Assembly: GCA_043827405.1 (NCBI GenBank)
Contig: JBDRPD010000066.1
Coordinates: 64,342-128,341, forward strand
DNA: 64,000 nucleotides
DNA from: Elusimicrobiota bacterium
Lineage (GTDB): Bacteria > Elusimicrobiota > Elusimicrobia > UBA1565
Reading direction: 5' to 3'
The notes below the pieces were generated by a model. The model was not told the DNA's origin and did no database searches. It saw only the letters and a list, made by a program, of their open reading frames with translations. Shown in pieces: positions 26,744-42,289 of the stretch; position 1 is the first letter of the stretch, and the number at the start of each line of letters is the position of its first letter. The position numbers were made by a program, and so were the translations under genes.

Positions 26744-26780
26744 GCCGAGATAGCTCAACGGTAGAGCAATCGCTTCGTAA
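26744..26780 (+). repeat. 5' half of tRNA-Thr(CGT), left attachment site of the island
   Basis: GCCGAGATAGCTCAACGGTAGAGCAATCGCTTCGTAA is identical to 42163-42199; identity ends at the end of the anticodon loop. Confidence 0.9.
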
Positions 26781-26910
26781 TCCTTCCTCTAGATCTATCC
26801 TCTCTCTCACCGCCCGACGTAGGATCGTTTACTCGACGGAGAGATAGAAAAACGTTGAGTTGGCTCTTGTTACTGCTCTATGGGGGAGTGAGGTCGTTTT
26901 GAGCTTAGGA

Positions 26911-26930
26911 GTGGACACTTTTTGGGCACT
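26911..26930 (+). repeat. Subterminal repeat, candidate integrase arm-type site (left)
   Basis: GTGGACACTTTTTGGGCACT matches 42068-42087 at 19 of 20 positions. Confidence 0.6.
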
Positions 26931-26934
26931 TGGG

Positions 26935-28932
26935 TTAGAATCTTTTCTCGATCAGTTTCTTCTGCCAGTTGGTTATCGCATCTTTGCTGAAGTCTTCTGC
27001 TCCAAATAGCGGCAGTATGCGCATAATGAACCTATTAGAGATGCCTTCCCAGGACTCTCGTAGGTCGGTAATGTCGATATCTTCTTTGAGGACTATTTGT
27101 GGTTCCTGAGCGATATAGTCTCCTCTGAAGTCGATCCCAGGGTCGAGGCAGACAAGATTTCGGTTTCCGGTTCCGTTGAGTGTTAGGCTCACGTGCACTC
27201 CGTCGATAAGAGGCTGTTCTCCGTAATATTGTTTTAAGAAGAGGAAAATTTCCGTAGTCTCCCAAATCAAATAGATGTAGGAGAGAATCCGTCGCCCCTG
27301 CTCATCTCTTTTATTTTCTAGATCTTCCCAGAAGATTCTTTTCCATACGAACAGTCCGCTTTGATAAGCGCGATAGCCTTCTATGTAGCGCTCCCAGGTC
27401 GTTTTGGACTGGTAGCCCTTTAAAAAATAACTTGAGGTTTCTTTATCGGTGTGGGGGAAGTTCCAGCCCCGGAGACTGACTTCTGACGCGCTTACCAACC
27501 GTTTCACGTCTCTCGGGTCCGGCAGTCGCTCAGCTTTGTACCTCGTCGGGTGGGAGAGAACTTCCCAGCCGCCAAAGTGCATAAATTTACTAGCGACCTC
27601 TGCATAAAGAAAATCGTCCGCAGCTTTGGTTTCTGCCACATACTTCGCCGCCGATTCTTCTATGGAATCGACAGTTTTGGGCTGTGCGGCCTCGCTCAAG
27701 CGTTCGGTAAGATGCTTGGTTGTAATCTCGATTCCTTTTGCTATTTCCCGGATGCTCTTTTTCGCACCGAACTCAGGAACAAAGGTCTTCTCTCGTTTTT
27801 TGACAGCCATGAGGAGAGCCTCTCCCAGATCGTTGCAGATACCTAAGACGGCCTTGACCCCGACATCGGCTTCTTCTGCGAGCCTTTCCCAGTGCCGCTT
27901 CATGATCCAGTTCGGACGGTTCTCTCCGCCGATTTTCATCGCCAACTTCTTGGAAAGTTCGGGATAAACCACGGTAGACATCAGATCGTAGAATGGCGCG
28001 AGACGTATGCCGTCGCGCGTGATTAGTATGGATGCATTTTTTGCATGGGCATCGCAGTTCCCGATAAGGTAATTGAAGACGACCCAGCGGAGAAGATTCC
28101 GCTTATCTATGATCGGCTCGGAGCTGCGCTCCTCTAGTAAGGTAAAACATTCTTTTAGTCCAGGGCCTCCGGCAGATTCATATTTTTGATCGTGGTTGTA
28201 TCCGAGAGCTTGGCAGAAATCCTCCTGATGTAGGCGAATGGGGGATCCAGCGGCCAGCGTGCGATCATAGCGTTCGACTTGAAGCGCTCGAATCTTGCCT
28301 CCTCGAATATCAACCTTCGGTACGGGCAAGGCACATTCTCTCGCGAGCATCATGCAGAAGGCCTCATTTTCGACTGTGTCAGTATAATCTGGAATCGTTG
28401 GTTTTAAGATATGTGAACTTGAAAATGCGCCCTTTGGCAGGAAGATGGAACCATCCTTTACGTAGACGGGTAATTTGTGTTGCGCTCCGGCCAAAGATAG
28501 ACGTAGGCCATCTTTGCCTGCAATCAATGCTCTCCGAGGCATTGCCTCGATCATATGGTCGAGAACTTCTTCGGAGAGTTCCTCGTAACTGCCATCTTCC
28601 TCGGGGGGGAGTCCGTCGGGCAGGAGGGACAACGCGCCGGCGCACTCTCCTCCCAATTCTTCCAGGAGCTTAAAGTCGTTTGTTGTTGAAACGCCGATAT
28701 TCTTTGCGATCATGTCCCGAATGTCAGCTTCAGGCAGGAGGTTGGTAAAGAAAGGTTTAGAGACGTCGGTTTCGAATGGTTCCGCTTGAAGTGGCAGCCT
28801 GAGTGAAATCGGAAGCGCTTCCGGTGATGAAACCCAATCGGAATCGTACTGAAAGATGAAAGCCCTTTTATCCGTGAGCCACAGGCGACCGACTTTTTGC
28901 TGAGCCCAATAAACGTTGAGTAGGTTATTCAT
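26935..28932 (-). CDS. hipA: HipA-family kinase toxin with an extra C-terminal domain
   Basis: HipA N-terminal coupling domain; SLAGAQHK, HQEDFCQ, NCDAHAKN and LAPFYD motifs; ~245 extra residues after the kinase. Confidence 0.9.
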   Translation of the reverse strand: MNNLLNVYWAQQKVGRLWLTDKRAFIFQYDSDWVSSPEALPISLRLPLQAEPFETDVSKPFFTNLLPEADIRDMIAKNIGVSTTNDFKLLEELGGECAGALSLLPDGLPPEEDGSYEELSEEVLDHMIEAMPRRALIAGKDGLRLSLAGAQHKLPVYVKDGSIFLPKGAFSSSHILKPTIPDYTDTVENEAFCMMLARECALPVPKVDIRGGKIRALQVERYDRTLAAGSPIRLHQEDFCQALGYNHDQKYESAGGPGLKECFTLLEERSSEPIIDKRNLLRWVVFNYLIGNCDAHAKNASILITRDGIRLAPFYDLMSTVVYPELSKKLAMKIGGENRPNWIMKRHWERLAEEADVGVKAVLGICNDLGEALLMAVKKREKTFVPEFGAKKSIREIAKGIEITTKHLTERLSEAAQPKTVDSIEESAAKYVAETKAADDFLYAEVASKFMHFGGWEVLSHPTRYKAERLPDPRDVKRLVSASEVSLRGWNFPHTDKETSSYFLKGYQSKTTWERYIEGYRAYQSGLFVWKRIFWEDLENKRDEQGRRILSYIYLIWETTEIFLFLKQYYGEQPLIDGVHVSLTLNGTGNRNLVCLDPGIDFRGDYIAQEPQIVLKEDIDITDLRESWEGISNRFIMRILPLFGAEDFSKDAITNWQKKLIEKRF

Positions 28933-29194
28933 TCGTTAGAGTCTTTTTCTTTAGCTGTACAACTAGGCCGAAGGCACGGAGAACCTGCATTGTTTTTCCA
29001 AGGTGGATGCTGGACTTTCCGTTCTCTAAATCGGAAAGAAACCGAGTGCCCACCTTGCACATCGAGGCGGCTTCGATTTGAGACAAGCCAGCCGATTTTC
29101 TCGTTTGCCGGACTATTGCTCCAATTTCAGCAGGTAGCTTGACAATGATTGCGGATATAGTTTTTTTGGGCCCTGTTTGGTTTCTGTCAGCCAT
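28925..29194 (-). CDS. hipB: HipB-like XRE helix-turn-helix antitoxin
   Basis: RKSAGLSQIEAASMCKVGTRFLSDLENGK; overlaps the hipA start. Confidence 0.85.
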   Translation of the reverse strand: MADRNQTGPKKTISAIIVKLPAEIGAIVRQTRKSAGLSQIEAASMCKVGTRFLSDLENGKSSIHLGKTMQVLRAFGLVVQLKKKTLTNE

Positions 29195-29197
29195 TTC

Positions 29198-29313
29198 ATT
29201 CCCGTACGGTATTATTTAACTGTTTTATAAATAAAATGAACTATTTATTCCCGTTCGGTAATATTATATCCAGGAATGGAGAAAAGTCAATGGATATTCC
29301 CGAACGGTAATAT
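29198..29313 (-). promoter_or_regulatory. hipBA promoter with three operator repeats
   Basis: ATTCCCGnnCGGTAwTAT at 29198, 29247 and 29296; minus-strand TTGACT (29290-29285) N16 TATAAT (29268-29263). Confidence 0.75.
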
Positions 29314-29401
29314 CTGTTGAGATAGGTGATACTAGTTCAGTCTTGACAAGAAGAATGCAGTACTGCGGTTTAACCTAAATTTCCACGAACTTATCTGACG
29401 C

Positions 29402-29545
29402 TCAACATTCGTAGCCCTGGCAGAAGCCGAGGTCATCATTACGGCATTCGGGAGGGAGTTCAACGACGAACGGCCGCACAGCTCACTCGGCACAACGCCG
29501 TCTCTGTTTGCGGCCCGGCATCAATCTGGATTTTGGGGCAGGGTC
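29402..29545 (+). pseudogene. IS3-family transposase C-terminal remnant
   Basis: Translates as STFVALAEAEVIITAFGREFNDERPHSSLGTTPSLFAA, matching the YN..RPHSSLG..TP integrase-core tail; no upstream ORF. Confidence 0.7.
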
Positions 29546-29705
29546 GGGGGGCTTCGTGATCGCCTGTCGCCATTGGCCCAATTGCCAGGGGAGACGTTGA
29601 TCGCAGCCGCGTAGCTAGAAGAACTGCCATATTGTACTTAAGAATTATACATGTTATACTAGCTTAAGTAACCACGCCGCCGGACGCCTCACCCAGGAGC
29701 AAACC

Positions 29706-31634
29706 ATGACCTTCGGCATCGGTAAGCGCGCGGACGCAGAGATCCGTAAGCTCGACTGCGCCATCGAGCAGGCCCCTTACGGCATACTTATAACCGACCG
29801 CAAGGGCGACATCGAGTACGCCAACGCCATGTTCACTAAAATATCCGGCTATACCCTCAAGGAGATCGTCGGCAAGAACCCGCGCATTCTCAAGTCCGGC
29901 AGACAGGACGGCGATTTTTATATCGGGCTGTGGGAGACGATTTGCGCCGGCAAGAGCTGGCAAGGGGAACTCCAGAATAAGAGGGAAAACGGTGAACTAT
30001 ATTGGGAACGCATGACCATCTCGCCGGTCAAAGATGTCGCCGGCGCGGTCACGCATTTCGTGGCCATGAAGGAGGATGTCACCAAACTAAAACAAGCCGA
30101 GCGCGAACTCGTGCAGGCGGGCGTCTACCTCGACGTCATGGGCGACGCCTTGGTCGCATTAACTCTGGACGCCAAGATAACGAAGGTCAATAGGGCGTTC
30201 CGCGACCTCTGGGGCTATACGTCCAAGGAGGTGCGCGGCGTGTCCGCCTGGTCCCTCTTCCCCGAGGCGGAGCGGACCAAGCTCGAAGCGATGATGGCGG
30301 AAAACCTGAAGGAACCGGCCGTGAAGAAGCGGCTCGAGAGCGCGGCGCTGAGAAAGGACGGCACTACGATCCCGGTCCTGCTCACCGGCTCGGTGATATC
30401 GGATCCGCGCAACGGCCCGACAGGCTATCTCGGGGTGTTTCGCGACATAACCCAGCTCAAGGAGGCTGAGGAGGCGCTGCGGCGCTCGGAGCAGCAGTTC
30501 CGTCAAGCGCAAAAGATGGATGCCATCGGCCGGCTGGCCGGCGGCGTCGCCCACGACTTCAACAACATCCTGACGGCGATCCTCGGCAACTGCGCCTTCC
30601 TGCTGCAGACGCACGTAAAAGACGTCCAAATGATAGAGGATGTCAATGCGATCAAAGCGGACGCGGAGCGCGCGGCTCAGCTGACGAGGCAGCTCTTAGC
30701 TTTCAGCCGCAAGCAGCCGCATCAACCCAAGGTTTTGGACCTCAACGCCGTCATCGGAAATATGGACAAGCTGCTGCGGCGGCTGGTGCGAGAGGATATC
30801 GAGCTGATCACATTGCCTCGGATCGGGCTGGGCAGCGTTCTGGCCGATCTCGCCCAGGTCGAGCAGGTGATCATGAATCTTGTGGTCAACGCCCGCGACG
30901 CTATGCCGGATGGTGGGAAGTTGAGCGTCGAAACCGCCAACTGCGAGCTCGACGAGGACTATAGCTGCAAACATTTTGAAAGTCGCCCGGGCCCTCACGT
31001 CGTGCTCTCGGTCAGCGACAACGGCTGCGGCATGAACGAGGAGACGCTGAGCCAGATATTCGAGCCGTTCTTCACCACCAAGGAGCAAGGCAAGGGCACG
31101 GGGCTTGGACTGGCCGCGGTCTACGGCATCGTCAAGCAGAGCGGCGGCAGCATAGAGGTCTATAGCGAGCTGGGGCACGGGACCACGTTTAAGATCTACC
31201 TGCCGCGCGTGGACGAAAGCGCGGAAGCGCTCCGGCGGCCGTCGGTGCCGGCGCGTCTGGATCGAGGTACGGAGACGGTCCTGCTCGCAGAGGACAACGA
31301 CCAGGTGCGGAGAATGGCCGCGCGGGCGCTGCGGGAGCAGGGCTACGATGTCCTGGAGGCGCGCGACGGCATGGAGGTGCTGCAGATCAGCGAGACGCAT
31401 ACGGGATGCATCCATCTTCTGCTGACGGACATCATCATGCCTAAGCTGAAGGGGCCCGAATTAGCCAAGCGTTTGCGTTCATATCGTCCGGGTTTGAAGG
31501 TGTTGTTTCTGTCCGGCTACGCCGAAGGTTCCGCGACGCATAACGGCCTGCTCAGCGGCGATATCGAGTTTCTTGCCAAACCATACACCCCGGAAGTCCT
31601 GCTGCAGACCGTGCGCCGGATACTAGACAGCTAG
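29706..31634 (+). CDS. Soluble PAS-PAS hybrid histidine kinase/receiver
   Basis: Two PAS/PAC domains, AHDFNN, FFTTK, GTGLGL and a C-terminal REC (LLTDIIMP). Confidence 0.9.
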
Positions 31635-31658
31635 AAGATACGAGCGCTTTTCGGCCGC

Positions 31659-34600
31659 TTAGGCAGCCTTGCCTCGCAGCAGGACTTCGTCCACCGCCGC
31701 CCGGAAGCGCTCCAGCGTGAAGGGCTTGGCCAGCACCGGCAGCCTCTCCAGCGGATGTCCAGGAGGGAACTCATGTTTTGTCACGTCCCCTGTAACGAGT
31801 AGAACCGCCGGAGCCGGCTTACTTCGCATGGCTGCCGTCGCGACGTGCCGGCCTTCCATGCCGCCCAGATGCAGGTCCGTTACCACTAGATCGTAGCGCG
31901 CTTCTTGGAGCCGGCGCAGCGCCTCTCTTCCCGAGCGGGCGATGTCCACCCGGTGCCCCGCGGCCGACAGCATTCGCTCCATAAGCGTCAGCACCGCCTG
32001 CTCATCGTCGACTACCAGCACCCGCTGATCTCGGATCGGCGCTGCTTTGCGCCGCGGCTTCTCCCGGGCGGCCAGCTTGTCGGCGACCGGCAGCCGCATG
32101 CGAAAGCACGCGCCGCCCAGCGGCGAAGACTCGCACTCCAGCTCGCTGCCGTGCTCACGGATGATCCGCGCGCATATCGCCAGACCTAGGCCCGTGCCCT
32201 CATCCCGCGTGGTAAAAAATGGCTCCAGTATCCGTTTTCGGTCGGCCAAAGAAACGCCCGGTCCGGAATCGCAGATCTCCAGCAGCACCTTCCCGCCCTC
32301 GTGCCGGGCGCTGATCTTTATCTTCTTCTCCGCCTCTTGGCCGCGCATCGCCTGGCAGGCGTTCTGGACGATATTGAGCAGAACCTGCTCGAGCTGCTGC
32401 AGATTGCCGAGCACGCGCGGCAGCCCCTTTTCCAGGTCGGTCTCGACCTGGATGTGCTCCTGTTTTTCCAAACCGTATTTCAGCAGGTGCAGCGTCTCGC
32501 GAACCGTTGTGCGCAGCGACAACGCGCTTTTGCGGGCGCGGGATTTGCGCACAAAAAGCAGTAGGTTGTCGACGATCGCCGCGCAGCGCTTGGCGTTGAG
32601 GGCGATCTCCTCGAGATCCTGCCGCATGTTGGTCGGGAGGTCCGCGGCGTCCGGCGCCTGCTGGAGCATCTCCGAATAGCCGATGACGTTGGTCAGCGGG
32701 TTGTTGAGCTCGTGCGCCACTCCGGAAAGAAGTTGTCCGGTCAAGGACAGCTTTTCGGTCTGGACCAGGTGGGCATGAATGGCCTTTTCCGTCGTCACGT
32801 CACGGACGACCAACGACCATTCCTGGGGTTCCGCACCGTCCCCCGAGCCGGACCAGGTAAGACTTAGATCCAGAGCCCGCCCTTCGCTTGTCCGGCCGCG
32901 CATCTCATAGTTCATCAGCGGCCCCTTCTCCAAAGCGTGGCGCAGCAGCCGACGGTAGTCGCCCGGAGCGAATAAGCGCTCGATTGTCGCTCCCCGCATC
33001 TCTTCTCCCGCATAGCCGAAGATGCGGCGCGCGCCGATGCTCCACACAGCGACCCGTAGGTCCGCGTCAAGCCCGATGATCGCGTCGGCCGAGCTGTCGA
33101 CGACGCTGCGATAGCGGGCTTCCGACAACCGCAGACCCTCGAACAACTCGAGGTTCTTGAAGGCCAGGCCCGCCGCGCCGCAGAATAATGACAGCGCGCC
33201 GACATCCTCCTCCGTGATTTCCTGTCTCGACTCGTACCTGTCGACCATGATCACGCCATAAACCCGATCATCGACCAGAATCGGTACGGCGCAGAAAGCC
33301 TCGGCCCGGACTTTCTTGATTATCGGATCGGTACAGCGGGGATCCGCGTCCGCATCCGGAATATTGACGCTCTTGCGCTCGCGCGCTACCCAGGCGAGAA
33401 TCCGGTTGCTGCCAAGTGGTACGCGCTCATCCCTGATCATTGTATCGCTCAGGCCCATGCTCTGCGTATTCAGCACGCAGCAGCCGCGCAGTTGTCCGCC
33501 GCCGTCGGCATCCGTGAGATACAAGGCGCCGCGGTCGAAGCTCAGGCCCTGTGCCGCCGCCTGGAGACAGACGCGGGCGATTTCCTCCCGGCTCAGCCGA
33601 TGCGCGACCGTGTCGCTCAGGGACTTTAGGGCGCTGAGCTGCCGCAGCCGGGACTCGAGCTCGCCGGTGCGCTCCTCGAGACTCGCGGCCATGGCGTTGA
33701 AGCGCTGGGCCAACTCGGCGATCTCGTCGCTGCCGCGGATTGCGACCCGGTGCGCGAGGTCGCCCTCCCCGAAGCGGCGAGACGCCTCGGTGAGATCCTT
33801 GATCGGGGCGGTCAACGATCTTACCTGGATGAAGATCAGCAGCATGACGACCAGAGCGCAGGTCAGTGTCACCGATACTGTGAGGTTGCGGATGCGCTTG
33901 AGCGGTCCGATGAAATCCTCGAGCAGCGCCGAGGTGCGGACCCGCCATGGGGTGCCGAGGATCGCCTGCGAGCCCGACAGCGTTTCCGGTCCCTGCGAAC
34001 CAGCGCTTCCGGCCAGCACATTACCGGCGCTGTCGACGAGCGCCGCGGCTCCGTGTTCGCCCGCCTGATGGCTCGCGAGCAGCGCCTCGACCTCTTGCAG
34101 GTTGCAGGACATCAAGATCGCGCCGCGGAAGCGTTCACCATCGTCGTAGAGCGGCTTCCCGATATCCCAATGCGGGTAAGCGCCGGCGGCGGCGGGCTGA
34201 ATTGTCGAGCGGAACTGCCCGCCCATAGGCTGTTCCTTTATCCGCTGGAACAGGTCCGCAGCAGGGGGGGCGAGGACGGAGCCGGCCGTCGAGTCGACCA
34301 CGATGCGTCCGGAGGCGTCGAAAAACCGCACCGATTCGTACGCGCGGGTACGTCCGCGGAAGGCTAGAAGATAGGCCGCGATGTCCTTGCGGTAGGCCTC
34401 GGCCTCTTCGCTCAGGCCGTATTCCTTGTTTTTATAGTAATCCCTGAACAGGGACGATTCAGCCACGGCATCAAGGTCGTTGAGCCGCTGTTTAAAGAAA
34501 CCCTGCAGTGAGAGTGCGGTGATGGCGGCGAAGCCGTCGACCTGCTTGCGGACGTCGCTCAGGATCTGGGTCCTGGCCGCACGGTAGAGGGGGATAGCGG

Positions 34601-34760
34601 CGGCGAATATGCCGAAAAGAGCCAACGGGATGACCCAGATAAGCACCCGCTGAGCCAACGATAAAGATGAACGATTGCGCCGCCGGGATTCTTTGACCAT
34701 CGGCCGACGGACCGACGAAGGCCCGCATCTTAGTGTATCGGGATTAGGCGGCTCCCGCAA
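31659..34760 (-). CDS. Membrane hybrid histidine kinase (TM-Cache-like-TM-HAMP-GAF-PAS-HisKA-HATPase-REC)
   Basis: Two TM segments flanking a ~250-aa extracytoplasmic region, HAMP (DEIAELAQRFNAM), GAF, PAS, AHELNNPL, REC (VVTDL); start may be 34700. Confidence 0.9.
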   Translation of the reverse strand: MREPPNPDTLRCGPSSVRRPMVKESRRRNRSSLSLAQRVLIWVIPLALFGIFAAAIPLYRAARTQILSDVRKQVDGFAAITALSLQGFFKQRLNDLDAVAESSLFRDYYKNKEYGLSEEAEAYRKDIAAYLLAFRGRTRAYESVRFFDASGRIVVDSTAGSVLAPPAADLFQRIKEQPMGGQFRSTIQPAAAGAYPHWDIGKPLYDDGERFRGAILMSCNLQEVEALLASHQAGEHGAAALVDSAGNVLAGSAGSQGPETLSGSQAILGTPWRVRTSALLEDFIGPLKRIRNLTVSVTLTCALVVMLLIFIQVRSLTAPIKDLTEASRRFGEGDLAHRVAIRGSDEIAELAQRFNAMAASLEERTGELESRLRQLSALKSLSDTVAHRLSREEIARVCLQAAAQGLSFDRGALYLTDADGGGQLRGCCVLNTQSMGLSDTMIRDERVPLGSNRILAWVARERKSVNIPDADADPRCTDPIIKKVRAEAFCAVPILVDDRVYGVIMVDRYESRQEITEEDVGALSLFCGAAGLAFKNLELFEGLRLSEARYRSVVDSSADAIIGLDADLRVAVWSIGARRIFGYAGEEMRGATIERLFAPGDYRRLLRHALEKGPLMNYEMRGRTSEGRALDLSLTWSGSGDGAEPQEWSLVVRDVTTEKAIHAHLVQTEKLSLTGQLLSGVAHELNNPLTNVIGYSEMLQQAPDAADLPTNMRQDLEEIALNAKRCAAIVDNLLLFVRKSRARKSALSLRTTVRETLHLLKYGLEKQEHIQVETDLEKGLPRVLGNLQQLEQVLLNIVQNACQAMRGQEAEKKIKISARHEGGKVLLEICDSGPGVSLADRKRILEPFFTTRDEGTGLGLAICARIIREHGSELECESSPLGGACFRMRLPVADKLAAREKPRRKAAPIRDQRVLVVDDEQAVLTLMERMLSAAGHRVDIARSGREALRRLQEARYDLVVTDLHLGGMEGRHVATAAMRSKPAPAVLLVTGDVTKHEFPPGHPLERLPVLAKPFTLERFRAAVDEVLLRGKAA

Positions 34761-36177
34761 GGACTTCCCGGCGGGCGCGGCGCTTCATCTCGGCGAGGAT
34801 CTTCCATAGCGGGCCGCGAAACCCCTCGCGGTAGAGGTCGACGATGGTGCGGTTGAGCTGCGGCGAGCCGCCGCCGGCGGTACAGTAGACAAAGTCCCGC
34901 GCTTGGGCGAAATCCAGGATGCGCCGCGTCGCGTCCGGCGGCAGCTCCTCTGAATAGTAGAAATACGGCTTCAGGAGCGGGGTAGTCGGCGACAGTAGAC
35001 CGCGTGCGATGAGCTGTTTCTGCACCGGAGTGCCGCGATAAATGCGGATGCCCTCGGCGATGAAGACGGCGGTGGGTCTGATATCGTCGACTACCGCCAG
35101 CGTCTCGGCCAGAGTTTCCGCATTTTCGCCGGGCGGGCCGATGAGGAGGTGAAAGCTGAACTCCAGGCCGTGGCGCCGGCACGCTTCCGCGGCGGAATAG
35201 ATGTCCCGCTGCCGGTAGTTCTTGCCGTAGGACTGCAGAATCTTGTCGGAGCAGGAATCGACGCCGAAATAGACGCCGTCGCTGCCGGCGCGAACCATGC
35301 GCGCGGCGAGCTCATCGTCGAAGCGGTACGGCGACGTATAGGCATGCCAGTGGGCGCCCAAATCCCTTTTGCTCAGCTCGTCGCAGACGTCAAGGGCGTG
35401 TTTTCTGGGCACGTTGAACACGCTGTCGGAGAAGTGAAAATAGTCGTAGCCCTTGCCTGCCAGGTACTCCATCTCGTCGACCACCCGGACGGGAGCGATG
35501 AGGCGGTAGCTGCGGCCCTCGATCAGCGGATAGGTGCAGTAGCTGCAGTGCTGGGCGCAGCCGCGCTTGGTCTGAACGCTCGCGCTGCCGCCGTGCAGGA
35601 AATATCGCTCGTAATCCACGAGGTCGAGCGCCTGCAGCGGCAGGTGCCTGAGAAATTCCGCGTCCGCGTTCACCGGTGGATTTTCCTGCAGGCTGCCGTC
35701 GTCCCAGCGGAAGACGAGCCCCGGCACGTCGTCGACGGCGCGCCGCGCGGCGAGCCGCTCGACCAGCGCCGCCAGGGCGAGCTCGCCCTCGCCCACGATG
35801 CCGTAGTCCGCCCCGGTCAGTTCCAGAATGGAGGCGGGCTCCAGCGAGAATCCGGCGCCGCCGAGAACCATGGGAACATCCGGATAGGCGGCGCGCACGG
35901 CGTGGATGAGCGCATCCGCTTCGGGCAGGAAAAAGCGGCTCTGCTGCATCTGCGCGCTGTCGATGTTGCGTATCGAGAAACCAATTAGGTCGGGTCGCGG
36001 TCCGCGCCTGAGCCGGCCGACTAGCGCATCTTGCGGAGAGCGCGCATCATCGTCAAGATAGGGGTCATGCAGCTCGACTATATGCCCATGGTCTCGCAGA
36101 TAGGCCGCCAGGTAGAGCAATCCGATCGGGCTCAGCGGGGGCTTGACAGCATTGGCGTTGATTAAGGCGATGTGCAT
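34744..36177 (-). CDS. Cobalamin-binding radical SAM protein (class B methyltransferase-like)
   Basis: N-terminal B12 domain (IGFSIRNID, LGGAGFS, GEGE) and QTKRGCAQHCSYC. Confidence 0.85.
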   Translation of the reverse strand: MHIALINANAVKPPLSPIGLLYLAAYLRDHGHIVELHDPYLDDDARSPQDALVGRLRRGPRPDLIGFSIRNIDSAQMQQSRFFLPEADALIHAVRAAYPDVPMVLGGAGFSLEPASILELTGADYGIVGEGELALAALVERLAARRAVDDVPGLVFRWDDGSLQENPPVNADAEFLRHLPLQALDLVDYERYFLHGGSASVQTKRGCAQHCSYCTYPLIEGRSYRLIAPVRVVDEMEYLAGKGYDYFHFSDSVFNVPRKHALDVCDELSKRDLGAHWHAYTSPYRFDDELAARMVRAGSDGVYFGVDSCSDKILQSYGKNYRQRDIYSAAEACRRHGLEFSFHLLIGPPGENAETLAETLAVVDDIRPTAVFIAEGIRIYRGTPVQKQLIARGLLSPTTPLLKPYFYYSEELPPDATRRILDFAQARDFVYCTAGGGSPQLNRTIVDLYREGFRGPLWKILAEMKRRARREVLAGAA

Positions 36178-36572
36178 TATGGGCGCTCCTGGGCGGCGCG
36201 CGTTCGACGGCGCCGTATAAGTTTCGCGTCGGGACGCTCGGCGTCCAACGCGGGGGAAAAGACGGACAGCGCCTCGACGCCGCTGGCTTCCGTCCTGAAA
36301 GCATGTGCCGTTCCGGCCGGAATCTGCAGGCTGTCGCCGCGTCGCAGGCGGAGCTTGCGGCCGTCAAGTTCAGCCTCGGCTTCGCCCTGGATTACGAAGA
36401 CGAACTCGGAGGTGCGCTCGTGGACGACGGGGCCTTCCATGCTGTAAGGGGCCAAGGCGCTGTGCAGCACCGAAACAGGAAAACCTGTCTTATCAACGGG
36501 CAACGAACGGATCGCGAGGTCGCCGATCATCCGTACTGGCAGCGCAATCCAGTCAACGCGGTGCGGCTTCAT
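36177..36572 (-). CDS. Cupin-domain protein
   Basis: HERTSEFVFVIQG and GDSLQIPAGTAH motifs. Confidence 0.8.
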   Translation of the reverse strand: MKPHRVDWIALPVRMIGDLAIRSLPVDKTGFPVSVLHSALAPYSMEGPVVHERTSEFVFVIQGEAEAELDGRKLRLRRGDSLQIPAGTAHAFRTEASGVEALSVFSPALDAERPDAKLIRRRRTRAAQERP

Positions 36573-38068
36573 TGCGGCACGTCGGCGGCGAAGAGATACG
36601 GCATGCCGGTCACATAATGGGGCAGCGTGACGCCGTTGCGCAGCGCATAGGTCTGCCGCCGCTGGTAGGTGAAGACGCTGAGAGCCTGCGCATAGATATA
36701 GCGGTCCAACTCCATCGCCTGACGCTGCCGCTCCGCGTTGTCGATGGTGGACGCCATCCGTTCGAGCATGACGTCGAACTTTTCGTCGCGCGCCAGACTG
36801 CGCGGCGACTTGGAAAATATGGCGAGCGCCTGAATGAAGTACGAGTGCGCCATGGGGTCAGGGCACTCCCCGATAGCAAGATCGTACTTCGGATCCTTGA
36901 AGAACGCGAGGATCTCATGCTCCTTCATAGTCTCAAACTTAAGATCGATACCAACGCGTTGCCAGTCGGCGGCTAGGATTCTAGCTGTCCGCTCGGCGCC
37001 TTCTAGCACCATCGCCGTCAGTTTAATGCCGTCCGCATGTCCGGCTTCAGCGAGCAGAGCCGCGGCTTTTCTCGGGTCATAAGGATACGGCTCTAAATCA
37101 GGGTTGTGCCCTTCCTCTCCCGGCATGCTCAGCGTCGCGATCGGCGTGCCGTTTCCAAGTAGGTCGTAGCGGATCAGCGCTTTCCGGTCGGTGGCATAAT
37201 TGAGCGCCTGCCTGATCCTGCGATCAGCGAGCACCCCCTTATCGAACCGCAAACTGATTCCCATGGTCGAATATGCTCGCCCCTTGAGGATGCGGGTTTC
37301 CGGATGCCGCTGAACGGCCAGCGTCATGGTGCCGGGAACATCGAATAGGGCGTCGACATTTCCGGCAAACAGCTCCGCGATCTGTTCCTTCGCGGGGATG
37401 AAGCGGAACACCAGCTTGTCGACCTTCGGTTCGTTCTCACTCCAATAATCCCTATTCGCTTCCAGCACGATGCGGTCGCCCCGCCGCCATTCCTCAAAGC
37501 GAAAAGCGCCGGTGCCCACCGGCGCGATCTCGATTGCCGCTAGCTGCCGGTGCGGGATAATTAGGACGAAACCCGCCAGCCGGTGCAGGAGCAGCCCGTC
37601 CGGCTGATGGGTGACGATGTCGACGGTGTGGCCGTCGACCACCTCGGCGCGGGCGATCGTCGCGATCATGCCGAGCGCGGGAAAGCCGGTCCGGGGATCG
37701 AGGTAGCGGGCGATGGTCGCCCGGACGCAGTCCGCGTCGAACGGCTCGCCATTATGAAAGCGGACATCGCGGCGCAGGGAAAAGCGCATGCGCAGCGGGT
37801 CGATACGCCGCCAAGAAACGGCGAGGGCAGGCTCGATCTTCCCCTGCGGATCGAAGCGCACCAAGCCCTCGTATATCTGCTGCAGGATGGTGTGGTTCTT
37901 CTCCGCGAACTGCTTATGCGGATCGAGCGTGGCCGGATCGCTGATGTCGTCGCAAACGACGAGCCGCTTGACCCGGCGCGCGGCAGCGACCGGCTCCTTA
38001 GCCGAAACTCCGACCGCGACCAGCAAAGAGCACGCCGCCGCCGTCATTTTCTTGCGATAAGCGCCCAT
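36569..38068 (-). CDS. ABC-type solute-binding protein, family 5
   Basis: Signal peptide; TLDPH, IYEGLV, PALAVSW, FHNGEPF, PVGTGAF and RQALNYA motifs. Confidence 0.9.
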   Translation of the reverse strand: MGAYRKKMTAAACSLLVAVGVSAKEPVAAARRVKRLVVCDDISDPATLDPHKQFAEKNHTILQQIYEGLVRFDPQGKIEPALAVSWRRIDPLRMRFSLRRDVRFHNGEPFDADCVRATIARYLDPRTGFPALGMIATIARAEVVDGHTVDIVTHQPDGLLLHRLAGFVLIIPHRQLAAIEIAPVGTGAFRFEEWRRGDRIVLEANRDYWSENEPKVDKLVFRFIPAKEQIAELFAGNVDALFDVPGTMTLAVQRHPETRILKGRAYSTMGISLRFDKGVLADRRIRQALNYATDRKALIRYDLLGNGTPIATLSMPGEEGHNPDLEPYPYDPRKAAALLAEAGHADGIKLTAMVLEGAERTARILAADWQRVGIDLKFETMKEHEILAFFKDPKYDLAIGECPDPMAHSYFIQALAIFSKSPRSLARDEKFDVMLERMASTIDNAERQRQAMELDRYIYAQALSVFTYQRRQTYALRNGVTLPHYVTGMPYLFAADVPQ

Positions 38069-39063
38069 GTGGGGTTTGGCGAGTCAGCGCAGATCTGCTG
38101 ACGCTTGTTTCTAGCAAATCCGCATTCCTCGATCCATCGCCGGTAATCGGCCAACCGATAGGTACGCCCGGCGCGTGTGCAGACCAGCATGTGGACCGAA
38201 AACAAGGCCGAGAAGGCGGGCGCGGTCCCTGTCTCATCGGTCATGAAGTCATGGATGACAAGCCGCCCGCCCGGCTTCAAGGCGTCCCGGCAGCGACTGA
38301 TCAGCCGTCGATTGGCCTCCTCTCCTTCGTTATGCGTGACATGGGATAATAAGATCAGATCGTAGGCGCCGGGTTCGAGTTCCGCCTCATGATAACTGCC
38401 TTCGATTAAACGAAGGCGTTCGCGATACGGAGAATCCACAATCAGCTTCCGGGTTACGCGCAGCGTCTCCGGGAGGTCAAGGATATCGGCCTCAAGTCTG
38501 GGATTGCGCTCTAACAGCGCCAGGGAGTACGCCCCGGGACCGCCTCCCAGGTCCAGCATGCGGCCCGGGTTCAGCGGTCCGAGGCAGGCGGCCAACTCGG
38601 CGGCCGGAAGCCGCGAGATATCGCGCATCCCCCCGATGTAGTCGCGAATAAAGGCTTTCTCTCCCCGCAGGCGAAAGTCCAGCGTCGTCACCGGCTCGCC
38701 GCGCCGCAGCGTCGTCTCCAGGTCCGACCAGGAATCCCACAGGAACTCCTGATACCTGAGGTTGTCGCCGATATAGCCGGGCCGTCCCTTCACCAGCAGG
38801 CGTTCGGCAGTCTCGGTATTCTCATACTGCCGTTGCGTCTTTGCCAGCAGGTCCAGGGCCGTGAGCGCGTCCAGAAAGATCTCCGCGGCGCGGGGATGCA
38901 GACCGAAGGCTCGGGCGATCTCCTCGCCGCCGGCGCGCTTTCCGGCCAGCCAAGTGAACAGCTCCAGCTTGGCGGCCACCAACAGGAGCTTGGCGCTGCG
39001 ATATCCAGTCGCCAAGGTCCCTAAGGCGGCAGGACTCGCCGCCGCACTCTCCAGCGCCATCAT
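38044..39063 (-). CDS. SAM-dependent O-methyltransferase with dimerisation domain
   Basis: N-terminal winged-helix dimerisation domain; LDLGGGPG, LSHVTHN and LKPGG motifs. Confidence 0.85.
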   Translation of the reverse strand: MMALESAAASPAALGTLATGYRSAKLLLVAAKLELFTWLAGKRAGGEEIARAFGLHPRAAEIFLDALTALDLLAKTQRQYENTETAERLLVKGRPGYIGDNLRYQEFLWDSWSDLETTLRRGEPVTTLDFRLRGEKAFIRDYIGGMRDISRLPAAELAACLGPLNPGRMLDLGGGPGAYSLALLERNPRLEADILDLPETLRVTRKLIVDSPYRERLRLIEGSYHEAELEPGAYDLILLSHVTHNEGEEANRRLISRCRDALKPGGRLVIHDFMTDETGTAPAFSALFSVHMLVCTRAGRTYRLADYRRWIEECGFARNKRQQICADSPNPTWALIARK

Positions 39064-40832
39064 ACCGCAGCCTCCTGCGTCGCGGCGCTCGACTTGCCCA
39101 TGAACTTGTCCAGCGTCCGGAAGCGGTCGGCCGTCGGCGGGCAGGCCTCGATGTCGACTCGGGCGTCGATGACCGTGGGCCGGCCCGATTTCAGCGCCGA
39201 GCGCAGAACGCCCTGCAGCTCGTCGGGCTTCTCCACTACATGCGCCTGCGCGCCCATGGCCCGCGCCATGGCCGCAACGTCCATGGGTTTGGCGAAGCGC
39301 GAGGTCACGAACTTGCCGCCGAATTGGATGCGCTCGCCGTGATAGACCATCCCGAGCCCGCCGTTGTTGAGCACCAGCCAGACGACGGGGACGTCGTTTT
39401 CCACTGCGGTATGCACCTCGAAGCCGTTCATGGCGAAGGAGGCGTCGCCGACGATGGCGATCACTGGACGTTCGGGAGCGGCGAGCTTGCCGCCGATCGC
39501 CGCCGCCACGGCATGGCCCATTGAGGCGAAGCCCATGTTGACGATGAACGAGCCGGGACGCGTCAGCTTCAGATAGTGGATGGCCCAGGCCATGCAGTTG
39601 CCGATATCCACGAATAGGATGGCGTCACTCGGCAGCGCCTCCTGCAGGTCGCGCATGAGGCGGGGGGGCTTGAGCGGGAGTGTCGCATCGTCGAGTTTCG
39701 CCGGCTCGGTCAGGCGCGGCAGCTGCGACTTGAAACCTCGAATCAATGCCTCCTTGGCGGGGGCCGGCGTACCGGCTTCCGTCCACCGCGCTTCGCGCTC
39801 CAGCTGATAGCGGAGCTCCGTCAGCACGGAGCGGGCGTCGCCGACGATGCCGTGCGTGACCGGGTAGTTGCGTCCGATCTGCTCGGGATCGACGTCGATC
39901 TGGATGAAGGTGTCGGTAGGAGCCAGCCGCGGGTCCCAAGCGTTGGTCACCTGTTCCCCGAGACCGCTGCCGACAACGAGCAGGACATCTACCTCGTCAG
40001 AGTTGAAGTAGCGCTCGGCCTGAGGCGAGCCGGCGAATCCCAGTACGCCCAAGGACAGCAGGTGGTCTTCTGGAAAGCAGGCCTTGCCCTTGGGTGAGGT
40101 CGCCACCGGCGCGCACAGCTGCTCCGCGATCCGGCGCAGCTCGGTAAAGGCGCCGGAGAGCGCGACCCCGTGGCCGGCGATGATCGCCGGCCTCTTGGCC
40201 CGCAGCAGTGCCTGCGCCGTCTGCCGGACCGCCTGGCGGTCGAAGTTTTGCGCCGTGGAGCGGTAAGAGTCGACCGGACGGATATCGGGAGAGCCCGGAC
40301 GCTTGGCGAGGTCGGCCGGGATGTTGAGGTGCACCGGACCCGGGCGGCCGCTGAGCGCGCAACGGAGCAGCCCACGGATATTGTCGCCGCAGGCGGTGTT
40401 GTTTACCAGCATGACGCTCTTCTTGACCACATCCTTATATAGGCTGACGATATCGATGGCATAGGCGCTGCTCTCCTGGGCCGCGCCCTTGCCGAAGGAC
40501 CAGGTCGGGACCTGGGCCGTCAGCAGAATGACCGGCACCGAGTCCATCGCCGAGCAGGCGAGCCCTGTCAGGGCGTTGGTCGCGCCTGGGCCGGTGGTGG
40601 CGCAGCAGACGCCGAGGCCGCGCCGCACTCGGGCGTAGCCGTCGGCCATGAAGGCGGCGCCTTCTTCGTGCTTGGCGAGGATCGGTCGGATCTTGGACGT
40701 GGCGAATATCGCTTCATAAAGCGGCATCAGCGGGCCGCCCGGGATGCCGAAGATGTGGTCGACGCCTTCGTTCTCTAGATAACGCAGCAGAGTCTCGACG
40801 ACGGTGGGCTGATTGTTTTTCTGGCGATGCAT
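39060..40832 (-). CDS. Thiamine-diphosphate-dependent enzyme (acetolactate synthase/ScyA-like carboligase)
   Basis: FGIPGG, HEEGAAFMADGY, TTGPGATN and GDASFAMN...NNG motifs; no ilvN/ilvC neighbours. Confidence 0.85.
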   Translation of the reverse strand: MHRQKNNQPTVVETLLRYLENEGVDHIFGIPGGPLMPLYEAIFATSKIRPILAKHEEGAAFMADGYARVRRGLGVCCATTGPGATNALTGLACSAMDSVPVILLTAQVPTWSFGKGAAQESSAYAIDIVSLYKDVVKKSVMLVNNTACGDNIRGLLRCALSGRPGPVHLNIPADLAKRPGSPDIRPVDSYRSTAQNFDRQAVRQTAQALLRAKRPAIIAGHGVALSGAFTELRRIAEQLCAPVATSPKGKACFPEDHLLSLGVLGFAGSPQAERYFNSDEVDVLLVVGSGLGEQVTNAWDPRLAPTDTFIQIDVDPEQIGRNYPVTHGIVGDARSVLTELRYQLEREARWTEAGTPAPAKEALIRGFKSQLPRLTEPAKLDDATLPLKPPRLMRDLQEALPSDAILFVDIGNCMAWAIHYLKLTRPGSFIVNMGFASMGHAVAAAIGGKLAAPERPVIAIVGDASFAMNGFEVHTAVENDVPVVWLVLNNGGLGMVYHGERIQFGGKFVTSRFAKPMDVAAMARAMGAQAHVVEKPDELQGVLRSALKSGRPTVIDARVDIEACPPTADRFRTLDKFMGKSSAATQEAAV

Positions 40833-40951
40833 GATAGCCTCGGTTTCGAAATCGTATGTATACTAGGAATACTAGTCTACGTGTTATGTTGGCGCCGTGT
40901 CAAACGGCTGGCCTTTAATTGCAATAATTGGTATTCTTACATTGCGCGGAT

Positions 40952-41533
40952 ATGGAGAAACGCTTCTATACGACGTTTGAGATTGGGAAGATCTGCGGGG
41001 TGTTCCCCAGCACGGTGATCAACTGGATCAAGGAAGGACGCCTCAAGGCCAGCCAGACGCCGGGCGGTCATCGGCGGGTCACGCATGCGGACTTGTCGAG
41101 CTTTATGCACGAGTGCGGCTACCCGCCGCTGGATGCGACAATCCTGCGCAAGCGGATCATGATTGTGGACGATGACCCTTCCGTATGCCGTATGCTCAAG
41201 AGAGCGTTTGAGGTCAGTAAAGAGACGGTTGATGTCGAAACCGTCTCATCGGGCATCGACGCCTTGGTGACGATCGGCAAGAATCCACCCGACCTCGTGA
41301 TCCTCGACGTCGTCATGCCGATAATGGACGGGGCCAGCCTCTGCGCCTCTCTTAAGGAAAATCCCGCGACCCGCGGCGTCAAGCTGATCGCCATCACAGG
41401 CAAGCGTCTCCTCGCGAAGAAGCAGCGCTTCATCCAGGACAACACCGATGCCTTTATGCGCAAGCCGCTGGATATTCGCAAATTGCTCGCCGTGAGCGCG
41501 AGCTTGTTGCGCGTCCCCCTGTCGCGGCGCTGA
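40952..41533 (+). CDS. Response regulator with N-terminal excisionase/MerR-like HTH and C-terminal receiver
   Basis: YTTFEIGKICGV...WIKEGRL...TPGGHRR, then IVDDD, ILDVVMP and KP. Confidence 0.85.
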   Translation: MEKRFYTTFEIGKICGVFPSTVINWIKEGRLKASQTPGGHRRVTHADLSSFMHECGYPPLDATILRKRIMIVDDDPSVCRMLKRAFEVSKETVDVETVSSGIDALVTIGKNPPDLVILDVVMPIMDGASLCASLKENPATRGVKLIAITGKRLLAKKQRFIQDNTDAFMRKPLDIRKLLAVSASLLRVPLSRR

Positions 41534-41619
41534 CGTCACATTTCTGAATTAGCCGGCTTGGCGGCCTATTTTTCATGTCGGAAGCTGGCTGTCGCATGCT
41601 AGAATCATGTTAGTACGCG

Positions 41620-41961
41620 ATGAAGAAGATATTAATCGTCGATGATTCTGAGCCGACACGGCGCATTATTGAGCGGATCCTTGAAGGCGAGGGCCATGCC
41701 ACTCAATCCGTCGCCGATGCCGACGCTACTGTAGAGTCGCTTGATCGCCAGAGCTTTCATCTTGTGATGATGGATGTCGATCTCGGCGGTGACGACGGCG
41801 TCGCTCTGGCGAAGCGGGTGCTACAGGACTATCCGCAGCAAAGGCTTATCCTGATGTCCGGAGATCCTTCCAACCGATCAAGGGCTGCGGAGGCAAGCCT
41901 GCCCTTTATTGACAAGCCCTTTGAGATTCCCGACCTGCTCGCGATAATCAATCAGCAGTAA
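41620..41961 (+). CDS. Single-domain response regulator
   Basis: ILIVDD, MMDV, MSG and KPF motifs; 113 aa. Confidence 0.85.
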   Translation: MKKILIVDDSEPTRRIIERILEGEGHATQSVADADATVESLDRQSFHLVMMDVDLGGDDGVALAKRVLQDYPQQRLILMSGDPSNRSRAAEASLPFIDKPFEIPDLLAIINQQ

Positions 41962-42067
41962 ACTCTTCGCTCCTTAGCATCGTCTGAGTCGGTGGCGTCA
42001 CCCATTAAACTGGAAGGTTAAGAGATTTCGATAGTATCTATGGCACCGATGTTTGATGGAATCGCAT

Positions 42068-42087
42068 GTGGACACTTTTTGGACACT
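42068..42087 (+). repeat. Subterminal repeat, candidate integrase arm-type site (right)
   Basis: GTGGACACTTTTTGGACACT, i.e. tandem TGGACACT units. Confidence 0.6.
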
Positions 42088-42162
42088 CGGCTGTTTTTGT
42101 GTTGTTTGGCAAATATCGGTGTATCGATTTCTCCTTATGAAATATGCTAAATTGTCCGCGTC

Positions 42163-42234
42163 GCCGAGATAGCTCAACGGTAGAGCAATCGCTTCGTAAG
42201 CGATAGGTTGTGGGTTCGAATCCCATTCTCGGCT
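42163..42234 (+). tRNA. tRNA-Thr (anticodon CGT), CCA not encoded
   Basis: Acceptor stem GCCGAGA/TCTCGGC, D arm GCTC/GAGC, anticodon arm ATCGC-TTCGTAA-GCGAT, T loop GTTCGAATC. Confidence 0.95.
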
Positions 42235-42256: not shown

Positions 42257-42289
42257 GCCGAGGATCAAAGTTCGAATCCCATCCTCGGC
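42257..42289 (+). repeat. Degenerate copy of the tRNA-Thr 3' end forming a hairpin
   Basis: GCCGAGGAT-CAAAGTTCGAATCCC-ATCCTCGGC; the last 20 nt match the tRNA 3' end at 19 positions. Confidence 0.6.

Follow-up and report, generated by a model that had tools for sequence, protein, structure and literature searches.

A conserved Elusimicrobiota gene cassette links an HKA synthase-like ThDP enzyme to a candidate binding protein-kinase receptor and a BldC-like regulator

Introduction

In the CqsA/CqsS and LqsA/LqsS systems, alpha-hydroxyketone signals are made and detected by a linked synthase and kinase; CqsA and LqsA depend on pyridoxal phosphate, and CqsS and LqsS bind the signal in membrane helices without a solute-binding protein (SBP). 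Here we describe a gene cassette of an Elusimicrobiota bacterium that is built around an enzyme requiring thiamine diphosphate (ThDP) and that also encodes a family-5 SBP, a membrane hybrid histidine kinase and a DNA-binding response regulator. The cassette occupies positions 31,659 to 41,533 of a stretch of 64,000 nucleotides (the window; positions 64,342 to 128,341 of contig JBDRPD010000066.1, assembly GCA_043827405.1) from a host genome (G000) of 4.33 Mb that is 97.97% complete.

One source describes CsmA and 'BpmA' (as printed there) as homologues of CybE, which carries out an acyloin condensation of two 2-oxo acids and yields an acyloin-type precursor of bioactive furanolides (PMC12395478). 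Another describes kinase-stimulating SBPs that are encoded with signalling genes, and ChiS-CBP, where a family-5 SBP acts on a dCache-like kinase (PMC8050422). BldC binds 9-bp direct repeats head-to-tail (PMC5859096). In a search of open-access literature listings, we found no signalling system based on a ThDP carboligase and no description of the present cassette. We consider it probable that this cassette makes a signal derived from an acyloin or a hydroxy-keto acid, that the SBP and the kinase sense it, and that the response is fed back through the BldC-type regulator.

Results

The ThDP enzyme is closest to BbmA

When we searched the PDB by sequence, we found that the closest solved relative of the ThDP enzyme is BbmA (PDB 8x3x, E 1e-180); the same search gave CsmA at E 2e-89 and E. 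coli acetohydroxyacid synthase (AHAS) at E 4e-71. The model of the enzyme superimposes on BbmA with a fold Z of 49.9 and an rmsd of 1.6 over 535 aligned residues (52% identity), while the next family in the fold search stands at Z 43 and benzaldehyde lyase at Z 40.8. The BbmA structure is titled 'ThDP-dependent HKA synthase', where HKA is an alpha-hydroxy-beta-keto-acid. Across the 54 cassette enzymes (53 other loci and the window's own), E56, G499 (BbmA G484) and R570 are each conserved in 53, and all 54 have D463 and E293. The enzyme thus has its closest relative in sequence and fold, its catalytic Glu and its ThDP-Mg motif in common with the BbmA/CsmA/CybE class, and the carboligase-type synthase that the initial annotation had proposed is borne out. 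Positions 118, 266, 294, 297, 410-413 and 433 vary among the 54 enzymes, and we infer that they line the substrate pocket. Neither the window operon nor the annotated genes of the cassettes include a CybF-type synthase (ketoacyl synthase III, KAS III) or a CoA ligase, which makes a furanolide an unlikely product.

A plain acetolactate synthase was one outcome that would have undone the initial annotation, and it is one half of a rival explanation, in which the enzyme is a housekeeping AHAS or the genes are a chance grouping of unrelated island genes. The top NCBIfam matches of the enzyme are indeed acetolactate synthase models, the JGI names agree, and no other protein of the genome exceeds the TPP_enzyme_N cut-off. 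However, it falls under half of, or well under, every NCBIfam cut-off shown (TIGR00118, 407 vs 538; PRK06276, 411 vs 866), and it scores 296 bits against a cut-off of 1000 with NF035927, the model for ScyA-related TPP enzymes. GMHG and RFDDR are AHAS motifs; in the alignment, the E. coli stretches 'GMLGMHG' and 'RFDDR' are replaced by GVLGFAG and GLGEQ. A profile search of the host genome for ilvC, ilvD and ilvH gave no match to PF01450, PF00920 or PF10369, whereas the controls were positive in 14/14, 14/14 and 13/14. With the linkage also conserved in 52 genomes, as described below, this rival is already largely refuted and we regard it as very improbable.

The cassette core is conserved within the phylum

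To measure linkage, we used one set of 401 genomes of one phylum (probably Elusimicrobiota) for three proteins, with thresholds of E<=1e-100 for the ThDP enzyme, E<=1e-40 for the SBP and E<=1e-15 for the kinase sensor region. Matches were present in 54, 57 and 55 genomes, respectively; all three proteins occur together in 52 genomes, at least one in 58 and none in 343. Whole families lack the system (0/118 and 0/89 genomes in the ThDP-enzyme search). Among six partial genomes, the ThDP gene of G274 is cut by a contig end, G396 is represented by a 2.9-kb contig, and the locus of G272 stops at a contig end; in G306, also partial, the SBP match is weak and generic. Named homologues of the cassette are nearly all labelled Elusimicrobia, with one labelled Proteobacteria. 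No relative of the ThDP enzyme or the SBP was found in the viral contigs searched, and the plasmids searched gave no match at E 1e-90.

In the 53 other loci, the ThDP strand also carries the SBP gene in 51, the kinase gene in 40 and the regulator gene in 43, and the regulator stands directly upstream of the cassette in 36. All four genes are together in 29 of the 34 loci with long flanks, and in the kinase-less loci of G102, G062 and G349 the kinase is encoded elsewhere in the genome. This linkage is far beyond chance. Of the conserved association between ThDP enzyme, methyltransferase, SBP and kinase that had been predicted, the ThDP-SBP-kinase part holds and extends to the regulator, but the methyltransferase is optional (32/53). 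The divergent regulator did not hold as a cassette feature: it is on the opposite strand in none of the other loci and on the operon strand in 43/43, so the divergence is peculiar to the host genome.

In G384, we found an SBP-kinase pair among housekeeping genes (L167:9568-13251) that has neither a synthase nor a tailoring gene or regulator close by; the best ThDP match (26%) is elsewhere in that genome. Because this pair exists without a close ThDP enzyme, the SBP appears tied to the kinase, and G384 is possibly a listener-only strain. G168 (L048:10772-15412) and G376 (L169) each carry two SBP copies of the cassette subfamily, and the second copies are possibly receptors for a second dialect.

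The SBP and the kinase form a candidate receptor

The linkage of the SBP gene to the gene of a dCache-type kinase is the arrangement of an SBP-gated sensor kinase. When we predicted the complex of SBP residues 30-499 with kinase residues 58-296 by ESMFold2, the score was 0.57 as compared to 0.01 for the best of three controls, which the tool grades as 'weak support'; the range up to 0.60 on this score holds 18 of 157 solved complexes along with both of the mismatches that passed. The contacts agreed to 100% between runs, with a partner pLDDT of at least 84. Seven ABC permease probes from G000 found no match in loci L031-L090 (ATPases were not searched), and the 13 PF00528 matches of G000 all lie on contigs other than the window's; a permease may work for the SBP in trans.

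The SBP changes together with the slot gene

The gene next to the SBP occupies a slot that is filled, across the 54 loci, by a cupin (34), a 4-helix membrane protein (10) or a class I methyltransferase (6), and that is empty in four, three of them at contig ends and one without an SBP. Two slot genes are never found together (0/54), so the slot genes are mutually exclusive. In the cupin, H51, E56 and H90 are invariant in 22/22 aligned sequences; the fold search returned generic cupins only (best Z 17.5, rmsd 1.6, 111 aligned, 16% identity), and its profile matches, quercetinase and oxalate decarboxylase, assign no function. The membrane protein (L039:5900-6349 and nine other loci), which stands in place of the cupin, has a conserved His-Phe motif; it matched no Pfam or NCBIfam family, and the Atlas clusters that it matched are all unnamed. 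A PF13557 outer-membrane channel accompanies it in 8/10 loci as compared to 2/34 cupin loci. In the related loci L078 (13621-16212), L079 and L084, a protein of 840-1000 aa with a trypsin-like domain follows the cupin.

Two methyltransferase-type enzymes had been named as part of the system; both are present here, but neither is core. The O-methyltransferase, whose best PDB match is RedM (8tji, E 4e-33), occurs in 32 of the 53 other loci, and the radical S-adenosylmethionine (SAM) enzyme in two, so methylation is an optional decoration. The best model for the radical SAM enzyme is TIGR04072 (308 bits against a cut-off of 360) and its best PDB match is the tryptophan C2-methyltransferase 6wte (E 1e-40); we dropped BzaC/BzaD (B12 lower ligand) as a reading, with the BzaD model at 206 against 450. 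Individual loci carry further genes: one a flavin halogenase and a TonB receptor, others an aminotransferase or a short-chain dehydrogenase/reductase (SDR). The halogenase, aminotransferase, SDR and methyltransferases are of biosynthetic tailoring types.

To follow the slot through the cassette's history, we counted changes of the slot label on trees of the 36 loci that have all four core proteins. On the SBP tree, the label changes four times, as compared to a mean of 11.3 and a minimum of 8 in 300 shuffles; it changes 10 times on the ThDP tree, nine on the kinase sensor tree and eight on the regulator tree. Host family changes 16 (SBP), 14 (ThDP), 11 (kinase sensor) and 12 (regulator) times, against about 19. 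From these counts, the SBP and the slot gene move together while the kinase and the regulator mostly follow the host, and the swaps, read from trees, suggest that the cassette has swappable chemical dialects.

The regulator is BldC-like and its promoters carry 9-bp repeats

The N-terminal domain of the regulator matches the BldC structures 6AMK and 6AMA best (6AMK, E 6e-6), and D127 and K179 are invariant in 22/22 regulators. The MerR-like winged helix-turn-helix (wHTH) and predicted targets of 9-bp direct repeats place it, by sequence, in the BldC family. From the 36 regulator-first loci, we dropped those with short flanks or weak promoters, and in the remaining 30, using the best-scoring upstream promoter, we found period-9 repeats (p<0.05) at the cassette promoter in 19, as compared to 3 of 88 control promoters from the host genome. 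Mean promoter autocorrelation reaches 0.47 at period 9, as compared to 0.26-0.34 for the other periods from 3 to 15. A single operator motif shared across loci was not found; the repeat period is conserved and the repeat sequence is not. The repeat unit tracks the recognition helix of the regulator (rho 0.32, 0/1000 permutations, 32 loci), a correlation that relatedness inflates. Because the repeats overlap the -10 and start region, they suggest that the regulator represses the operon when bound. Thus, the feedback that had been proposed through the regulator retains its predicted operator repeats at the operon promoter but loses divergent gene order as a general feature.

Relatives of the enzyme adjoin other signalling genes

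A metagenome scan left 75 loci, of which five are the same cassette and roughly 30 others encode enzymes at 41-51% identity. We scanned the neighbours of 18 of these distant loci, picked by hand with short contigs skipped, and found that kinase or SpoIIE/STAS/anti-sigma genes adjoin the enzyme in 13; one of them, L118, reads ilvE-SBP5-dCache kinase. Because the loci were selected by hand, we treat this survey as a lead. A KAS III neighbour is found in one distant locus only (L101), which is unrelated to the cassette. In L096, L098, L102, L104, L105, L109 and L114, BbmA-like ThDP genes lie in partner-switching operons of SpoIIE phosphatase, anti-sigma and STAS genes, one of which also holds an NMT1-type binding protein. 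Small citrate-synthase-like genes, one or two per locus, flank such genes in L103, L113, L122 and L128, where a kinase or a TonB receptor is often present as well.

The window copy sits in a tRNA-Thr island

The ORF map and Pfam confirm the regulator on the plus strand and the six genes on the minus strand, in the positions and with the domains first given for them (Table 1). With the longest ORFs, the overlaps are indeed 4, 25, 4, 1 and 17 nt, but the 25- and 17-nt values are probably start-call artefacts. Because the database call of the SBP gene is 492 aa, the former is probably a 4-nt ATGA overlap, and because homologous kinases start near ATG 34700, the latter is probably a 43-nt gap. By homologue consensus, the kinase most likely starts at this ATG; the regulator most likely starts at ATG 40952.

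The copy lies in an island of 15.4 kb bounded by 37-bp repeats spaced 15,419 bp. Both flanks are present in 5 of 13 same-family stretches, where they are 0.8-3.1 kb apart as compared to 17.5 kb here, an empty site. Probes for the ThDP enzyme, SBP, methyltransferase, radical SAM enzyme and regulator found no match in the 13 stretches, several of which are short. A tRNA target-site repeat and an empty site in relatives identify an integrative island. An 18-20-bp motif near both ends is found also beside an integrase on contig C8; none of the 12 PF00589 (tyrosine integrase) matches is in the window, and serine recombinases were not searched. GC content at third codon positions is 0.73-0.84 in the cassette, which is host-like (genome median 0.81), and 0.55 in the HipA gene. 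Since the cassette is host-like in this measure and the site is empty in relatives, the window copy is cargo of the island and probably came from a related donor. The cassette had been called mobile; this holds for the copy in the tRNA-Thr island, but no integrase was found in the island, and the kinase and regulator trees largely follow host family. A tRNA was called within the fetched stretch in 9 of the 53 other loci, so a tRNA-linked island is not the usual setting.

The 5' half of the tRNA-Thr gene is duplicated by the island, which sits upstream of the gene (26744-42199), the less common geometry of integration; a separate 20-bp stretch, 56 bp downstream (42270-42289), repeats the 3' end of the tRNA. 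The HipA kinase has a C-terminal extension of 230 aa that belongs to no Pfam family. The label of the HipB-like gene upstream of it (89-aa ORF, 28925-29194) is taken from position and sequence, and three 19-bp repeats, 49 bp apart (29197-29313), resemble hipA operators. The second hybrid kinase, which may belong to the regulon, has a promoter TTGTAC-17-TATACT (29640-29706) with a trace of repeats, where the period-9 test is not significant (p 0.20). Just outside the left island end is a FIST-FIST_C-adenylate/guanylate cyclase gene (24712-26715) with no match in the 13 same-family stretches.

Table 1. Features of the cassette and its island, in window coordinates
Feature	Position	Strand	Families and remarks
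Left island end, perfect 37-bp copy of 5' half of tRNA-Thr(CGT)	26744..26780	+	
HipA-type kinase toxin gene and 89-aa HipB-like gene	26935..29194	-	PF07804+PF13657; island cargo
Cytoplasmic PAS-PAS hybrid kinase in island	29706..31634	+	Pfam; CckA-like, under cut-off; convergent with operon, outside conserved core
Membrane hybrid histidine kinase, dCache_1-HAMP-GAF-PAS-HisKA-HATPase-REC	31659..34760	-	Pfam; start probably 34700
B12-dependent radical SAM enzyme, probable C-methylase	34744..36177	-	PF02310+PF04055; rare accessory
Monocupin, Cupin_2	36177..36572	-	PF07883; slot gene
Family-5 SBP, SBP_bac_5	36569..38068	-	PF00496; start probably 38047; proposed signal receptor
Class II SAM methyltransferase (O- or N-)	38044..39063	-	PF00891+PF08100 (Methyltransf_2 and dimerisation domain); optional tailoring enzyme
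ThDP enzyme, TPP_enzyme N/M/C	39060..40832	-	Pfam; HKA synthase-like, BbmA/CsmA/CybE type; proposed signal synthase
Operon promoter, sigma-70-type, TTGACA-18-TAGACT	40874..40903	-	9-bp imperfect direct repeats overlap and follow it (about 40848-40883); predicted operator
Response regulator, HTH_17 and REC	40928..41533	+	PF12728+PF00072; BldC-like wHTH N-terminal, receiver C-terminal; start probably 40952
Stand-alone receiver protein in island	41620..41961	+	PF00072
tRNA-Thr(CGT); first 37 nt are right island end	42163..42234	+	

Discussion

In the autoinducer-like signalling system that we propose, the ThDP enzyme, with its class taken from homology, would decarboxylate one 2-oxo acid, presumably derived from an amino acid, and couple it with a second; the product would be an alpha-hydroxy-beta-keto acid or, once CO2 is lost, an acyloin. 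The slot gene (here the cupin) and the optional methylases would then finish the molecule, which would leave the cell and re-enter the periplasm, in some relatives perhaps by way of the outer-membrane channel or TonB receptor that they encode. There it would be bound by the family-5 SBP, which is weakly predicted to dock on the dCache domain of the kinase; the kinase would set the phosphorylation of the BldC-like regulator, and the regulator would oligomerise head-to-tail on the 9-bp repeats over the -10 and start region and close a feedback loop, of which the sign is predicted to be repressing. The SBP and slot gene would be swapped between lineages as a specificity module on a kinase and regulator that are mostly inherited with the host, and strain dialects would result. 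A bolder version, which we put forward tentatively and rate slightly short of an even chance, is that the cassette is the founding member of an autoinducer class made by ThDP-dependent HKA synthases, with dialects set by SBP plus finishing enzyme and listener-only strains such as G384, and that the enzyme clade is wired, in other bacteria, to partner-switching phosphatases or other kinases.

Several observations weigh against a signalling role. The core cassette encodes neither an exporter nor a histidine phosphotransfer (Hpt) protein, and the regulator is not nearby in 10 of the 53 loci. In G122 (99% complete; L049), the ThDP gene is followed directly by the kinase gene, and the genome has no SBP match. 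Tree distances correlate weakly between ThDP enzyme and SBP (rho 0.24, 51 loci) and barely between SBP and kinase sensor (rho 0.08, 39 loci), so tight co-evolution of synthase and receptor is not seen; for kinase sensor and regulator the correlation is 0.48. The SBP adjoins the slot gene, and their co-transfer may reflect adjacency alone; the O-methyltransferase gene, equally adjacent to the SBP gene, needs 12 changes on the SBP tree. Eleven of the 30 cassette promoters do not reach p<0.05 for period-9 repeats, and the window's own operon promoter is marginal (autocorrelation 0.41, p 0.031). The survey genomes are related to one another and are not independent trials, so the cassette counts overstate independence. 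Finally, the same gene set fits the sensing and modification of an external compound.

The weak ThDP-SBP correlation would suit a specialised-metabolite cluster, where the product is an effector (an antimicrobial, anti-predator or host-directed acyloin-type compound) and the SBP, kinase and regulator merely turn its production on when they meet an outside cue other than the product. Such clusters typically carry halogenase, methylase and reductase genes as accessories, and BbmA and CsmA are described as homologues of CybE, the maker of the furanolide precursor (PMC12395478). However, the SBP clade changes with the slot gene, as is expected if the ligand is the pathway product, the annotated cassette genes lack KAS III/CybF and a CoA ligase, and G384 keeps the SBP-kinase pair without a synthase; we think an effector cluster fairly unlikely.

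Under conversion of an external compound, an aromatic or acyloin from the environment would be sensed by the SBP and kinase, admitted by the outer-membrane channel, cleaved by the ThDP enzyme and detoxified by the methyltransferases. ThDP carboligation is reversible, the PF13557 channel is found in 10 of the 53 other loci and a TonB receptor in one, and repeats over the -10 fit an inducible repressor. However, the seven probes found no inner-membrane permease in the loci, the cassette has no recurrent genes for ring cleavage or a CoA pathway, L075 and L118 encode aminotransferases able to supply 2-oxo acids, and benzaldehyde lyase lies far below BbmA in the fold search, all of which make this explanation quite unlikely.

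If the signalling proposal is true, the cassette would represent a new synthase class for bacterial signals. For a phylum of which most members are uncultured, it would be a first candidate means of communication, and its natural variants would form a collection of synthases, tailoring enzymes and receptors that match one another. Its parts are soluble or standard and testable in E. coli, and BbmA can serve as the structural template.

Compared with described systems, the cassette shares single features with each. Like CqsA/CqsS and LqsA/LqsS, it links a synthase to a kinase, and its likely product class is an alpha-hydroxyketone. The enzyme itself resembles BbmA/CsmA/CybE of the furanolide pathway in identity, best fold match and the shared glycine; unlike in that pathway, it is linked to a receptor, a kinase and a regulator, and CybF-type synthase and CoA ligase are missing. 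The regulator has BldC as the best match of its N-terminal domain and the same 9-bp period at its promoters, but BldC is a stand-alone domain of 68 residues, whereas the cassette regulator is fused to a C-terminal phospho-receiver. In LuxS/LuxP/LuxQ (AI-2) and ChiS-CBP, as in our proposal, an SBP presents the ligand to a dCache-like sensor domain, and CBP is of family 5 like the cassette SBP (PMC8050422). However, LuxP is a Peripla_BP_4 protein, the ligands of CBP are external chitin oligomers and CBP works for a transporter too, and neither system uses a ThDP synthase; in NCBIfam, the cassette kinase is far under the LuxQ model score, or the LuxQ model is not among its matches. ScrABC of Vibrio parahaemolyticus likewise has the genes for its signal enzyme, its binding protein in the periplasm and its membrane sensor in one operon, and its S-signal comes from amino-acid metabolism (PMC11315295, PMC8050422), like the signal proposed here. 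In contrast to the ScrA aminotransferase, the family-3 SBP ScrB and the GGDEF-EAL protein ScrC, the cassette has a ThDP carboligase, a family-5 SBP, a hybrid histidine kinase, a DNA-binding regulator and swappable tailoring genes. As proposed, the cassette would work like ScrABC or LuxPQ but is a member of neither.

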